64,000 nt of DNA from Eledone cirrhosa (GCA_964016885.1 OZ024741.1:175336001-175400000), one strand, 5' to 3'; positions 3,651-55,394 are shown, numbered from the stretch's first letter. The notes: generated by a model not told the origin, from the letters alone. Numbers and translations are program-made.

Positions 3651-3855
3651 TAACGAAGGAATTGTGGTAAGGAACCAGATAGACCATAACGCACCAAAGT
3701 ACTCAATACTTAGAGTAGTAGAGTGGGTAATAGGAACAAATATGACCCCAATGGCAGAGCTCAAGCCGTTTCGACGGCTAATTCTGGACGTCTAAGTCCA
3801 GAATTAGCCGTCGAAACGGCTTGAGCTCTGCCGTCGGGGTCATATTTGTTCCTAT
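3651..3855. mobile_element. Palindromic half-hammerhead mini-element (copy 1)
   Basis: About 60-bp inverted arms (3730-3789 / 3796-3855) carrying GAAAC-GGCTTGAGCTCTGCC-GTC; (TA)n flanks; homologues at 38344, 48742, 55205. Confidence 0.8.
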
Positions 3856-3872
3856 ATATATATATATATATA

Positions 3873-4529
3873 TGTGAGAAAAACCAGATGTGAGAAAAAC
3901 CACAGACCCTCCATCTCCACTCTACTTCTGAAAAGCAGAACAACTGCGAAACCGGTAAAGGAACCAAATAAATATATATATTTAAAAAAAATAAGACTCC
4001 AGTTGCATTTTCGATTTCATCTTTTTTTCTTTATACTTTCACTCGTGTAGCACACCTCGGTTATTTTTCATTTTGTAAAAAAAACCTCACTTTCTAATAT
4101 ATATATATATATATATATATATATATATATATATATATATATATATATATATATATATATAATATATATATATATATATATATATATATAATATATAATA
4201 TATATATATATATATATATATATATATATATATATATATATATATATATATATATATATATATATTATATATATATATATATATATATATATATTTATAT
4301 ATATATATATTAGAAAGTGAGGTTTTTTTTACAAAATGAAAAATAACCGAGGTGTCCCACACGAGTGAAAGTATAAAGAAAAATAGATGAAATCGAAAAT
4401 GCAACTGGAGTCTTATTTAAAAAAAAAAAAAAAATATTTATTTGGTTCCTTTACCGGTTCTTCTGCTTTTCAAAAGTAGAGTTGAGATGGAGGGTCTGTG
4501 GTTTTTCTCACATCTGGTTTTTCTCACAT
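3873..4529. repeat. Two ~225-bp HHR-bearing mini-elements in inverted (tail-to-tail) orientation around a (TA)n tract
   Basis: 3873-4098 is the reverse complement of 4309-4529; left arm has CTT-CTGAAAA-GCAG AACAA CTGC-GAAAC-CG-GTA/AAG at 3925-3960. Confidence 0.85.
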
Positions 4530-4534
4530 ATATA

Positions 4535-5200
4535 TATATATTTATTTATTTATATACGTTCATTTAATTATTTATTTATTTGTATACACGCACACACACA
4601 CACATATTTATATGTGCGTGGTTTTGTATACCTATGGTAAGTGTTTTGCGTATGCTTGTGTATGTACGTATTTGTTTGCGTGTATGTATTTATTTATTTC
4701 TATTACTTCTGTATTGTATTTATTTACTTTATTCTTAACTCTGAAGCGGAGATTCATTCGGTCTCCTAGTTAGAATTTTAGTCTACGACTTCTGCTATAC
4801 CATTTACGTGGTTTTGTCTTTGCGTGCAATTGTTCTCCACGCTCCACATATGACGTATTATCTTCGTTTTTTCCGTTCATTGCCAGAGAACGTCTCTATG
4901 AATCACCTACGAGAACATTAGTCTACGACTTCTTTTATACCATAAACGTGGATCTGTCTTTGCGCGTAATTGTTTTTCACCGTTCCTATTAATGACGTAT
5001 TATATTCGTTTTTTCCCATTCTTTGCCAGGGAACGTTTCCACGAACCAAAGTATCGTCTTCCTGTCTTCTTCCTGTTGCAACGTTTTTTGAAATATCGAC
5101 TTCTGCGTTTACAGATTGACTATGTTAGTTTCAGAAGATCCAGTTAAGGGTGAAAGCAGCGATTCTTTGCTTAAACTTTAATCTGTTATTTTAATAAATA
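4535..5200 (+). mobile_element. PLE family A 3' UTR (CAGAAGA-HHR subfamily)
   Basis: Near-identical to 51600-52260, which follows a GIY-YIG ORF end; internal ~130-bp duplication; HHR at 5112-5185. Confidence 0.8.
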
Positions 5201-5880
5201 TATATATATATATATATATATATATATATATATATATATATATATATATATATATATATATAATATATATATAATATATATATATATATAAATATATATA
5301 TATATAGAATTTTCAGACGGGTGCGTGGACCCGCCAAAAACGTGGCCGGTGGAAACGGAGCGAGATCCACGGGTCAGGGGCTGTTGGTCGACTCGACCGG
5401 CAGCCGCGCACAGCGAAAGAGTGAAGAATAACATTGTCAACAGTACAAAAAGGGTTTTATTTACAGTATTAACAATTGTTTCATTGATTAAGTTGTCTAA
5501 AAATTGCTAATCACTTGAAGTTGTGTCACTCAATTTTAAATACAATGTATGCTTAATCAAATCATCGGCGTTTGTAATATACTAGGAAAATTCAAATCAC
5601 GTCAGATTAACCTGCGTAGGAATTTCCGATAACTCGCAAACTCGCTACCTAAGGAAACCTCCTGTTGAGTCAAACAACGCCGGAGGCTAAAACTATTTAC
5701 AATACGGAGTATTCACAACCTCTAACTGGATTACCTATAACGATAATTTGTTATCCCATATATATATATATATATATATATAAACAACATCGTCGATTGT
5801 TTCTCTATCCCAAGAACAGAAGGATGGCGATGTTCATCTAAAGAACACATAACGCAATGAGGCTGTATGCTTGCAAACGA

Positions 5881-6067
5881 ATGGCAGTATCGGTAGAGGG
5901 TCTGACGCCATGCTTTTCAACAAAGAGTTACGGCCATTTATGGTCCGAGTTCAAGTCCCACCGATGTTAGCTTTGCCTTTCATCCTTACGGTATCGACAA
6001 AATAAAGTACCAGTAATACACTGGAATAATTGCTGGCCTTGTGCTAAAAGTAGAAACAATTATTATT
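5881..6067 (+). mobile_element. tRNA-derived SINE (octopus-type, Meta-like core)
   Basis: TGGCAGTATCGGTAG A-box-like, GTTCAAGTCC B-box, GCCTTTCATCCTTACGG..TCGA..AAATAAAGTACCAG core; many copies in window. Confidence 0.85.
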
Positions 6068-52350: not shown

Positions 52351-52618
52351 ATATATATATATATATATATATATATATATATATATATATATATATATAT
52401 ATATATTTATGCATGCCTTTTAACATCTGTTTGAGGACACTCATACCAAGTTGATGGGACAACTGGTTGAACAGATCCTAGTTCTTTGATTAGAGCTTAT
52501 TTCAATATTTGGAACCAAGGCTGACGATAAAATAAGTTACTTTTCAAAGGAATCAAACGTTTGACACACACACATATATATATATATATATATATATATA
52601 TATATATATATATATATA

Positions 52619-52678
52619 CTCTTTTACTCTTTTACCTGTTTCAGCCATCCGGCCGAGGCCATGCTGGGGCACCGCCCT
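52619..52678 (-). mobile_element. 3' end of an octopus-type SINE
   Basis: CTCTTTTACTCTTTTACCTGTTTCAGCCAT..GGCCATGCTGGGGCACCGCC, recalled as an abundant octopus repeat end. Confidence 0.55.
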
Positions 52679-52994
52679 ATAAATATATATATTTATTAAA
52701 ATATCAGATTAAAGTTCACCTTTAACGGGATCTTCTGAAACTCTGAGTTTATATATTTGCTCTACGGTTCTTATTTATTTGATATATATTTATCCTCATC
52801 GAGCCCGCTTTGGATTTTTGTCTTCAAATTTATTATTATTACTATATATATATATATATATATATATGTATATATATGTGTATGAATATATGAATATATG
52901 AATATATGACACACACACACATACACACACACACACACACACACGCATGTATTTATATATATATGACTTCTTCAGCTCTAGAATAAAATCATCA

Positions 52995-53155
52995 TTCCTG
53001 ATGATTTCCTACGAATGAAACAGTTATAGTCCTGTACAAGTCATTTCTATATAAATAAAGAGGCTTATACTTTACCAACGTATTGAGTACCTTTGTGATT
53101 AACTGTGATTAACTGTGATTACTCCCAAAACACCACTCGGGAACCTAGATTTCAT
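52995..53155 (+). mobile_element. Short PLE terminus with HHR (52995-53039)
   Basis: TTC-CTGATGA-TTTC CTAC GAAT-GAAAC-AG..CT-GTA; tail shared with 33870, 57585 and 8348 copies. Confidence 0.7.
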
Positions 53156-55204
53156 ATGCATAAATATATGTGAGTGTGTGTGTGTGTGTGTGAGTGTGTG
53201 TGTGTATTATCATTGGATACCTTCTTTGGCGATAAAATCGATTTTGACATTTGTTAAGCGGAAACCTAAAAACCTATTACTAAAATAGAACTGAGAGCAT
53301 TTTGCAATTTAGTATAATGTATATGAGTAAAAGTATTCTGCATTTAACATATTTGTACGGCACTAATGCTCAAATATTCAAAGTTATCACACATTCGAAT
53401 CTTAAAAGTTTCATTCCAGAGAGCGGGCTCTTGAAACTGCTGCGCTGTATTAGCTATAAAACTATAAAATATATACACAATACTAGCACACACACACACA
53501 CACACACACACACACACACACACACACACACACACACACACACACACACACACACACACACACACACACACATATTCACGTATATATATATATTCACGTA
53601 TACATATATATTCACGTATATAAACAGGCACATATATAATGTACGTATGACATGAGTAGAATACGGGTTCAGCACTATAAGTGCCAAAATAACAACAGTA
53701 TTTTGTCCATAAAAAATGTATCCATCAGAAAACTTCTGTAAAACATGAGAACTAGTGACATCTGTTGAGCCTAATATTGCTTAAAAGTGTAACATGTGTG
53801 TAAAGACGTCAAAGTTTTTGATGGATGATGAGATTCACAGGAAATATCCATTAGTTATAAGTATGATGGTGTACATCAGATTTGATAAACATCGGCACTA
53901 TATATAATATACAATTAGTCGTGTGTATGTATATATTTTTGTATTATTTATATTGTATGTGTGTATCCATCCATCTATCTATCTATATATGAATCTCTCT
54001 CTCTCTCTCTCTCTCTCTCTCTCTCTCTCTCTCTCTCTCTCTCTCTCTCTCTCTCTCTCTCTCTCTGTATATATATATATATATATATATATATATATAT
54101 ATGTATATATATATATATATATGTCCCTCACTCTCTCTATATATATAGGTATATATACGTACATACATACGTATACATATATATATATATATGTATATAT
54201 ATATACACAACTATATATCTTTGAGCTAATATTATTATTATTACTGTGAACTGCGGAATGCTCTTAATTCCGATGCTAGTATATATATATTTATATATAT
54301 GTATATATATATATGTATATAGTTAAATTACATATAGATACGTATGTGAATATACGTGTGTATGCATACGAGTGTATATATGTGTGTATGTATATATATG
54401 CGTATATATGTGTGCGTGAAAATGTGCGTATGTATATGTCTGCATATATATGTGACTATATGTGTGCGTATATGAATATATATATGTATATATATATATA
54501 TATATATATATATATATATATATATATATATATATATATATATATATATATATATGTATATATATATATATATATATATATATATATATATATATATATA
54601 TATATATATATATATATATATATATATGTATATATATATATATATATATATATATAAACATATATATGGACATGTCTAAATATATATGTATAAACATGTG
54701 ATTATATATATATATATATATATATATATATATATATATATATATATATATATATGTGTGTGTGTGTGTGTGCGCGTGTGTGTGTGTGTGTGCGTATGGC
54801 ATTCTATTCTTAAGTTCATATCTTTCTATTTACTCTCCTATCTTTCTTTCTGTCATGTAATGAAAGACTAACACCCGAAACCTTATGAACTTTTCCTACA
54901 ATCTCTCTCTCTCTCCCTCTCTCTCTCTCCCCCTCTCTCTCTCTCTCTCCCTCTCTCTCTCTCTCTCTCTCTCTATATATATATATATATATATATACAT
55001 ATATGAATATATATATATATATATAAATAAATAAATATATATATATATATAAATATATATATAAATATATATATATATACACATATATATATATATACAT
55101 ATATAAATATATGTATATATATTTATATATATTTATATATATATAAAGAAATAAATTTATATATACATATATATATATATATATATATATATATATATAT
55201 ATAT

Positions 55205-55394
55205 ATAGGAACGAGTAGGACCCCGACGGCTGAGCTCAAGCCGTTTCGACGGCTAATTCCAGAATTAGCCGTCGAAACGGCTTGAGCTCAGCCGTCGGGG
55301 TCCTACTCGTTCCTATTACCCACTCTACTACCCTAAGTATTGAGTACTTTGGTGCGTTATGGTCCACCTGGTTACTTACCACATTTCATCCGTT
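55205..55394. mobile_element. Palindromic half-hammerhead mini-element (copy 4, opposite orientation)
   Basis: Arms 55205-55259 / 55262-55316. Confidence 0.82.

Follow-up and report, generated by a model that had tools for sequence, protein, structure and literature searches.

What kind of element left a series of half-ribozyme palindromes in the genome of Eledone cirrhosa, and by what route was each palindrome made? The question is raised by a 64,000-nucleotide stretch (GCA_964016885.1 OZ024741.1:175336001-175400000; hereafter, the window, meaning the whole stretch that was analyzed), in which four copies of a palindrome with a tail, along with one diverged relative, sit in microsatellite DNA and carry the 3' half of a hammerhead ribozyme in each arm. 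A preliminary description of the window attributed them to a nascent complementary DNA (cDNA) that folds back on the stem II hairpin of the ribozyme and primes its own second strand, such that a retroelement would yield palindromes resembling miniature inverted-repeat transposable elements (MITEs). Here, we describe the parent of these copies, a Penelope-like element (PLE) of the Hydra clade, and map the ends of its retrocopies. Under the reading that we favor, with a probability of roughly 0.6, the window copies and the diverged relative are retrocopies of the pseudo-long terminal repeat (pLTR) of this element in (TA)n, each joined head-to-head to a tail-less partner, likely copied at integration from one and the same RNA.

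Copies in the window and their parent element

All five places in the window were re-read and the inverted word pairs were counted. Each consists of two inverted arms and a 78-nt tail within (TA)n, in the order tail, arm of ~55-60 nt, short centre, and reverse complement of the arm, ending GGAAC at the TA repeat. The 17-mer CGAAACGGCTTGAGCTC from the arm has 8 matches in the window, forming 4 inverted pairs (0.04 expected), and a 29-nt tail word has 4 (0 expected). Every arm reads ...CAGAATTAGCCGTC GAAAC GGCT-TGAGCTC-AGCC GTC GGGGTC, and CTGANGA is found in none of the window copies, so that the palindrome-plus-tail layout, the hammerhead 3' half in each arm and the missing CUGANGA half all stand as first described, as does the central loop that differs from copy to copy; in copy 3, the centre, TGTACA, is a perfect palindrome. 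Sequence variants are indeed mirrored in both arms, but those that had been taken for copy-specific (AAGTAAG, GAGTAGG and CAGTAAG) recur at many loci and in parents, and are lineage markers rather than private changes.

Copies of the family abound in the 3.0-Gb genome, where counts were made with exact-word patterns, a kind of probe that favors young copies. A 41-nt arm word has 8,413 and 8,492 exact matches on the two strands and a 32-nt tail word has 9,826 and 9,811 (19,637 in all), and short copies far outnumber parents and other long copies. A non-palindromic copy among the first loci (L002) extends upstream into the missing hammerhead 5' half, reading ...CCATATATGGAATTACCCC TTGAGAA G CTCGGCTATTTAAATACCAGGATAAAT TTTC ATTTA(G/T)TCCAGAATTAGCCGTC and continuing on the 3' side with GAAAC GGCT TGAGCTC AGCC GTC GGGGTC.... 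The parent 5' half, upstream of the 3' half present in the short copies, has the form ...GGAATTACCCC-TTGAGAA-G(C/A)TCGGCTATTTAAATACC.... The parent motif TTGAGAAGCTCGGCTATTT has 190 and 165 exact matches (355), mostly as -/+ pairs 0.4-5.4 kb apart, and the looser form GGAATTACCCC-N10-CGGCTA has 5,237 matches in the genome. A parent with an intact CTGANGA 5' half had been predicted: the 5' half exists, but its core is UUGAGAA, not CUGANGA. The parent string proposed at that time, CTGANGAGACGGCTAATT, has 0 matches in the genome, the pattern CTGANGA N0-8 GGCTAATTCTG has a single, unrelated match, and the stem II 5' strand of the parent is not the complement seen in the palindromes.

The parent units, ~3.6 kb long, comprise an open reading frame (ORF), a ~1.2-kb 3' untranslated region (UTR), a hammerhead-shaped motif and the 78-nt tail. 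ORFs of 695-710 aa in the long loci contain the motifs YRDDG, HSDKTGN (DKT), CNCPDRSIC (CxCX5C) and, at the C-terminus, VIYQC..YIGLT; the ORF of locus L072 has HSDKTGNLYF and CNCPDRSIC, with RWR where RWK has been described. At the motif level, the C-terminus (VIYQC...YIGLT...R..QH) is GIY-YIG-like, and the nearest Atlas clusters to the ORF carry GIY-YIG and RVT_1, with PF01541 in 26-50% of the members. The best Foldseek matches of an AlphaFold model of the ORF (predicted local distance difference test score, 83.4) are reverse transcriptases, including telomerase reverse transcriptase (3du5_A, E=4.2e-8, among the top three; 6usq_A, 9.9e-8). Homologues of ~700 aa number 403, many of them on 2.4-3-kb contigs. 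In PMC8557442, Hydra-clade PLEs are defined by insertion into (TA)n, DKT, a linker of the CxCX5C type and a GIY-YIG nuclease at the C-terminus, and the parent agrees with this definition, for the nuclease at the motif level.

In tandem copies (L073 and L076), the tail runs directly into ATCTAGCTCC...ATG, that is, the 5' UTR and ORF start, which identifies the hammerhead plus tail as the pLTR. Head-to-head pairs of long copies (L072, L074, L075 and L077) have their junctions at varied places in the element body. In long and short pairs alike, one partner ends GGTTCC at the TA boundary (site q) and the other carries the 78-nt tail, an asymmetry seen also in the pairs L045/46, L048/49, L050/51, L062/63 and L015/16, and each marker lineage of the short copies is matched by a parent lineage. 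A layout with 5' truncation, partial tandems, an inverted 5'-truncated copy and a short tail at one end only has been published for PLEs (PMC8557442, PMC3846280). The parent is a Hydra-clade PLE with a U3-A8 hammerhead, an inverted pLTR and a tail, and the family is ordinary in kind, new only in detail: the end maps, a possible promoter inside stem II, and a peak of 5' ends at G856.

The same data bear on whether the short copies could instead be a non-autonomous element that propagates by itself, be it a foldback DNA transposon or MITE, or an RNA copied as a unit in the manner of a short interspersed nuclear element (SINE) or a retrozyme. High copy number, hairpin shape and TA targets would suit such an element, to which we nevertheless give hardly any credence: the centres are not constant among copies, a tail is present on one arm only with no terminal inverted repeats spanning both ends, the marker lineages match those of the parents, no target duplication is readable in (TA)n, and truncated and internally deleted forms grade into full elements. 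With variable centres and a 78-nt tail that has no counterpart at the other end, the suggested MITE-like class of palindromes does not hold up.

Palindrome ends and the origin of the inverted arm

The ends of the palindromes were read in the first 90 places of the tail word on contig C1 (the first ~30 Mb of one contig), and these copies, as well as those in the window, were mapped to a 953-nt parent reference. The 90 tail-anchored copies include 69 palindromic ones, 6 long ones of the parent type and 9 simple 5' truncations; among the remaining 6, 3 are joined at the hot spot defined below to other element sequence or to flanking sequence and 3 have other forms (one tailed on both sides). Nearly all of the 90 copies and all window copies are inserted in (TA)n.

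Mismatch between the two arms of a copy is 2.0%, against 5.7% between copies, 49% of the arm pairs are identical, and three marker sites agree between the arms in 53 of 54 copies (34% expected under random pairing), in line with the expectation that arm-arm identity would exceed copy-copy identity. The centres nearly all differ, some carrying 5-27 nt of filler and others being perfect palindromes without any loop. Differing centres and concordant arms together imply that each insertion created its palindrome de novo from a single source RNA or locus and that the palindromes did not propagate as units, so that the single-source origin at insertion that had been proposed is supported. Palindrome centres are unstable, and the differences among them could in principle be mostly later damage, with identical long perfect palindromes having lost their centres by hairpin breakage and repair, for which the 5-27 nt fillers would also speak. 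We consider this very improbable: with 2% arm mismatch and 49% identical pairs, many young copies already differ in the centre, deletions should hit both arms alike although the large asymmetries described below run 13 to 2, and TA-flanked copies without arms have end points in common with the palindromes.

The ends of the 69 palindromes fall in narrow intervals. The outer end of the tail-less arm is at reference position 875 (site q) in 61, the 5' end of the tail-bearing (right) copy lies within 811-821 in 47, and the inner end of the left arm lies within 809-823 in 52. The inner-end cluster, hereafter the hot spot, thus occupies the 11 nt just 3' of the stem II loop (807-810), which a single palindrome of the 69 passes, and the axis is beside this loop as first described. 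Over 811-821, the positions of the two inner ends are independent of each other. In 19 of 69 copies, the tail-less arm exceeds the other by at least 6 nt, and where the arms differ by at least 20 nt, it is the longer one in 13 copies and the shorter in 2. The hot spot is also the junction in internally deleted elements (L080, L151 and L165) and is used by TA-flanked copies without an inverted arm, for which there are 3,184 pattern matches (offsets within one TA run counted separately); among the first 100 matches listed, ~21 of ~50 distinct loci of such simple copies start at A815/G816 (this tally, like those of G856 starts and hammerhead core bases below, was made by hand). Contig depth summed in one run (X2) drops ~20-fold at the hot spot, with loose ends at q, at the tail end and at 811/812; the drop only restates the copy-number step.

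The model of the preliminary description, in which a single nascent cDNA folds back on the stem II hairpin and self-primes a copy-back strand, so that the ribozyme fold sets the axis, can draw on an axis within ~11 nt of the stem II loop, on both arms coming from one source, and on the self-priming proposed for palindromic PLE junctions by Arkhipova et al. (2013, PMC3846280). It also agrees with the small-scale centres, in which ~14 single-copy pieces are part of the tail-bearing copy and ~5 are part of the other arm. Nevertheless, it appears improbable. The arms are exact complements that stop on the 3' strand of stem II, the loop and imperfect 5' strand of the parent are never retained, and perfect centres without a loop exist. 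Because a copy-back product cannot exceed its own template, a longer tail-less arm is not something that a single snapped-back cDNA can give. Furthermore, the end point is common to non-palindromic copies and to internal-deletion junctions, and axes lie elsewhere both in the kilobase-long pairs, with junctions far from the ribozyme, and in a second PLE family of the same genome. Folding of the nascent cDNA on stem II is therefore not supported, and the end map of the sample argues against it and for two cDNAs made from one RNA. A variant in which copy-back halts at the first TA microhomology was rejected, since long partners pass ATATAT and TATTTAAATA, yet end at q.

The hammerhead of the second PLE family is of the canonical minimal type I (of 74 matches scored with RF00163, 18 exceed the threshold), and the layout is like that of the main family, with the axis 45-60 nt upstream of the hammerhead (L032 and L038). 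The loci of this second family (L032-L041; G000, several contigs) read CCCTGATGAGTCC...GGACGAAACATTGTC, score 34-38 bits with RF00163 and lie in (TA)n; one partner ends CTCTCTTAA at the TA boundary and the other has ~105 nt more.

Hammerhead motif and candidate RNA start site

In the minimum-free-energy fold of a 119-nt parent segment (L107), stems I, II and III meet at a three-way junction in which UUGAGAA, GAA and C are unpaired, and the centroid fold of another locus (L185) is alike. Stem II is long (~24 bp), stem III is a 6-bp hairpin, and C precedes stem I. GAAAC and GUC are present in all copies. Among the first 100 parent matches listed, A8 occurs in 98, U3 in 77, C3 in 22 and CUGANGA in 0, in the combinations U3-A8 (75) and C3 with A8 (22); the U3-A8 covariant is known from PLE hammerheads (Cervera and de la Pena 2014, PMC4209133). 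The canonical CUGANGA core has 4 matches genome-wide, against the 5,237 parent-type matches. These four (L198-L201; G000 C3, C4, C6 and C24) read CTGAGGA, have other substitutions in common, and may form a small lineage with C3-G8, next to the C3/A8 forms and the majority with U3-A8.

A second, smaller peak of 5' ends coincides with G856, the predicted product end of the ribozyme. Among the first 100 matches listed for TA-flanked loci with 5' ends in 849-858, ~32 of 62 distinct loci start exactly at G856, compared with 1-6 at each neighboring position. As for the main cluster, the TATA box TATTTAAATA begins 29 nt upstream of A815, which itself lies within initiator-like TTAGTCC/TCAGTAC, and both the TATA and initiator-like motifs are present in 36 parents. 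Of 6 unambiguous cases among the TA-flanked copies, 4 have an additional G before A815, and at one locus (L152), 818 is the first position of a pLTR that leads on into the 5' UTR and lies behind an inverted arm. Transcription starts inside the pLTR in Penelope and Chlamys-3 according to PMC8557442, and a TATA box with an initiator has been noted in rotifer pLTRs (PMC3846280).

Taken together, the mapped ends suggest that transcription starts within the ribozyme and that the RNA is cut where predicted; the mirror axis is likely the place at which the element RNA begins, rather than the trace of a fold-back on the hammerhead. The 811-821 pile-up would mark the 5' end of the template RNA, most likely the transcription start of the pLTR, and transcripts from any 3' pLTR would carry only the hammerhead 3' half and the tail and be copied whole. 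For the inverted arm, the likely origin is twin priming, in which the other cut end of the target primes a further cDNA at q on this RNA; the two cDNA ends would then be joined, with an overlap or filler of 0-2 nt. Given that the smaller peak sits exactly at G856, it is likely that the U3-A8 hammerhead cleaves read-through RNAs in vivo. Short copies, which are without the TATA box, would be dead on arrival.

Twin cDNAs could also arise on an RNA whose structure sets the hot spot, through a stop or template switch at the stem II hairpin or a nuclease cut in its AU-rich loop. The start of the hot spot is the base immediately 3' of the predicted 4-nt loop, and in tandem copies 3 of 4 informative upstream pLTRs extend well past it. 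Family D, to which the diverged window copy belongs, also has a bearing here. Its core is UUGAUAA, its stem II differs in sequence from that of the main family (by eye, a pair is gained or lost at two places, and one double change turns U-A into A-U), and the window copy has the stem III variant GGCCGAAGCTCAGCC with a CpG-to-CpA change. The 5' ends of family D pile up at the homologous TCAGTT, and a hot spot without a TATA box speaks for a structural stop. In the other direction, the enzyme passes stem I, stem III and basal stem II with few stops, the ends peak at the initiator-like A/G and not at the stem base, the extra G and the TATA box at -29 are in place, and the existence of at least 5,237 longer copies means that read-through of the hairpin is possible. 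A structural origin of the hot spot seems to us doubtful, but with family D lacking the TATA box, it remains a live rival.

In family D (L168-L197), the stem III word with CCGA has 166 matches, and in most of the palindromes one arm has CCGA and the other CCGG; the difference looks like recurrent CpG decay after insertion rather than something made at insertion.

Several observations weigh against the origin of the palindromes as paired pLTR retrocopies of a hammerhead-bearing PLE, or against the start-site interpretation of their ends. Pfam yields no family for the ORF or for two homologues, and a sequence profile search of the PDB with the ORF gave nothing, so the GIY-YIG assignment rests on the motifs and the Atlas leads. 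Rfam, at E<=10, detects no hammerhead in the window copies, in a parent or in one of the canonical-core loci (L199), only microRNA-hairpin noise; RF00163 does detect the second PLE family in this genome. The fold energy of the hammerhead is no better than that of shuffled sequences (z -0.3 to -1.3), and the tail RNA has no fold better than shuffles. The start-site interpretation is based on the ends of genomic copies; a small share of the one public RNA run yielded nothing, and the other public runs are contigs of unknown kind. The hot spot also adjoins the stem II loop, where a structural stop or loop cut would give an identical map, and neither of the two family D parents has the TATA box. 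Later deletions in the centres of palindromes could account for part of the arm asymmetry, and the reading does not say why q is used rather than other UAU sites. The narrow sample, the exact-word probes and the hand-made tallies count on the same side.

With these points in view, we put forward tentatively, at somewhat less than even odds, that a promoter is built into the ribozyme: the TATA box would be the stem II 5' strand, with the start just past the loop, so that the element's own transcripts would carry an inert half-ribozyme and read-through transcripts a whole U3-A8 hammerhead cut at G856, with ~20,000 retrocopies recording both 5' ends. If true, the function of a PLE hammerhead would be read out in vivo for the first time, and two cDNAs on one RNA would be shown to underlie PLE inverted repeats. 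How PLEs integrate and what their hammerheads do are stated as open questions in PMC8557442, and in the present family, the two junctions can be placed at base resolution in thousands of young copies. For annotation, the hairpins should be treated as an ordinary PLE footprint, not as a new MITE-like class or a new ribozyme device; perfect hairpins of ~55 bp in TA repeats are also likely to cause assembly trouble and are possibly a source of double-stranded RNA.

Features of the window and comparison with known systems

The coordinates of the copies and their parts are collected in Table 1.

Table 1. Palindromic retrocopies in the window, with positions counted from its first nucleotide and reference positions given on the 953-nt parent sequence
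Feature	Position	Strand	Reference positions	Identity and remarks
Copy 1, tail-bearing retrocopy	3652..3789	-	816-953	90.6% identity to reference 953-816
Copy 1, tail	3652-3729
Copy 1, arm with hammerhead 3' half	3730-3789
Copy 1, centre filler	3790-3794
Copy 1, inverted tail-less partner arm	3795..3855	+	815-875
Diverged relative (family D), tail-bearing copy and inverted arm	38144..38322	-		77% identity to reference over 38144-38263
Copy 2, tail-bearing retrocopy	38345..38483	-	815-953	95.0%
Copy 2, inverted tail-less partner arm	38484..38537 (end approximate)	+	819-~872
Copy 3, tail-bearing retrocopy	48744..48881	-	816-953	96.4%
Copy 3, inverted tail-less partner arm	48882..48937 (start approximate)	+	~816-875
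Copy 4, inverted tail-less partner arm	55205..55259	-	821-875	94.5%
Copy 4, tail-bearing retrocopy	55258..55394	+	817-953	94.2%
Copy 4, GAAAC	55274-55278
Copy 4, GTC	55294-55296
Copy 4, predicted cut	between 55296 and 55297
Copy 4, tail	55317-55394
(TA)n target microsatellite, example flank	55395..55436	.		such tracts bound every copy

The tail-less arm of copy 2, whose last bases are GTTTCTCTCCCC, adjoins (CT)n at 38541-38597, not (TA)n. Beside copy 1 (3866-3975), a 16-nt unit repeated 1.9 times at 3872-3902 is followed by GAAAAGCAGAACAACTGCGAAACCGGTAAAGGAACC, which resembles a stretch upstream of a diverged tail in another locus, L029 (~2240-2330), where there is extra sequence able to pair with the tail (GGTGCGTTATGGTCC / GGACCATAACGCACC). 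The same locus has, at ~1245-1290 and just upstream of a TA tract, a hammerhead-like core with a long stem II (CTGATGAG GTCATAGCCATT...AATGGCTATCATC GAAAT), and L029/L030 (G000 C1:15465551-15466029) contains 3 direct repeats, 207-231 bp apart, of a tail-less arm with an interrupted TA microsatellite, which is a tandem duplication of microsatellite plus stump. The flanks of L003, L004 and L186 share a unit, (ATC)n...CGTTTAACGTCCATCTTCCACGC(T/A)(T/A)GCATGGGTT, found beside several insertions and belonging to an unrelated short repeat family. Elsewhere in the window, 14759-14837 and 15721-15839 (minus strand) have weak similarity (75% and 69%) to the PLE ORF region and are possibly an old PLE remnant. 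A tRNA-model match at 34865-34928 (minus strand; 29.9 bits, threshold 29) may be a tRNA-derived repeat or chance, and ARAGORN found no tRNA in the window.

Inversions at the 5' end of LINE-1 (a long interspersed nuclear element) reportedly arise by twin priming, a model attributed to Ostertag and Kazazian (2001), with the second cDNA primed internally from the other target end. The route proposed here is similar in that both cDNAs would be made on a single RNA, the second one from the other end of the target, and their ends joined. It differs in that one stretch of RNA appears twice in the product, whereas LINE-1 has inversion without duplication, and in that the internal priming site is fixed.

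Compared with the Hydra-clade PLEs as presented in PMC8557442, the family shares a single ORF of ~700 aa with DKT, CxCX5C and, at its C-terminus, a putative GIY-YIG-type part (here motif-based), (TA)n insertion, 5' truncation, partial tandems and an inverted 5'-truncated partner, as well as a tail at one end only and a hammerhead in the pLTR. It departs from that account in its unit of ~3.6 kb (Hydra elements are generally <3 kb), its 78-nt tail (30-40 nt in Hydra elements), its non-canonical hammerhead (with A8, a stem II of great length and a stem III of 6 bp), and the predominance of ~190-bp stumps, which make up about three quarters of the sampled copies. Size and hammerhead type are weak criteria, given that the wording of PMC8557442 is that a canonical hammerhead is 'readily detected' and that elements are 'generally' <3 kb.

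The ribozyme motif resembles the PLE pLTR hammerheads treated in PMC4209133, including that of Schistosoma Cercyon, in being of type I and located in the pLTR, in having U3-A8 for C3-G8, and in the GAGCTC of helix III; paired hammerhead motifs on opposite strands, 100-700 bp apart, are noted there as well. Unlike those, the predicted ribozyme of the present family has a stable 6-bp hairpin as helix III, a helix II of ~24 bp with a TATA-like sequence in its 5' strand, and C3 opposite A8 in ~22% of the listed copies. In the rotifer Penelope elements of Arkhipova et al. (2013, PMC3846280), an inverted pLTR likewise stands beside a direct one, one of the two is tailed, and a putative TATA box and initiator are present; the junction palindromes were read as made during retrotransposition. 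That study had a handful of copies per family and favored self-priming on an antisense template, whereas thousands of copies allow end mapping here, and the map argues for two cDNAs. Finally, animal non-LTR retrozymes (bioRxiv 10.64898/2026.07.22.740005) are comparable to the short copies as non-autonomous, hammerhead-carrying sequences originating from PLE pLTRs; unlike the retrozymes described in that preprint, which are tandem and contain whole hammerheads, the stumps are dispersed and inverted and carry the 3' half only.

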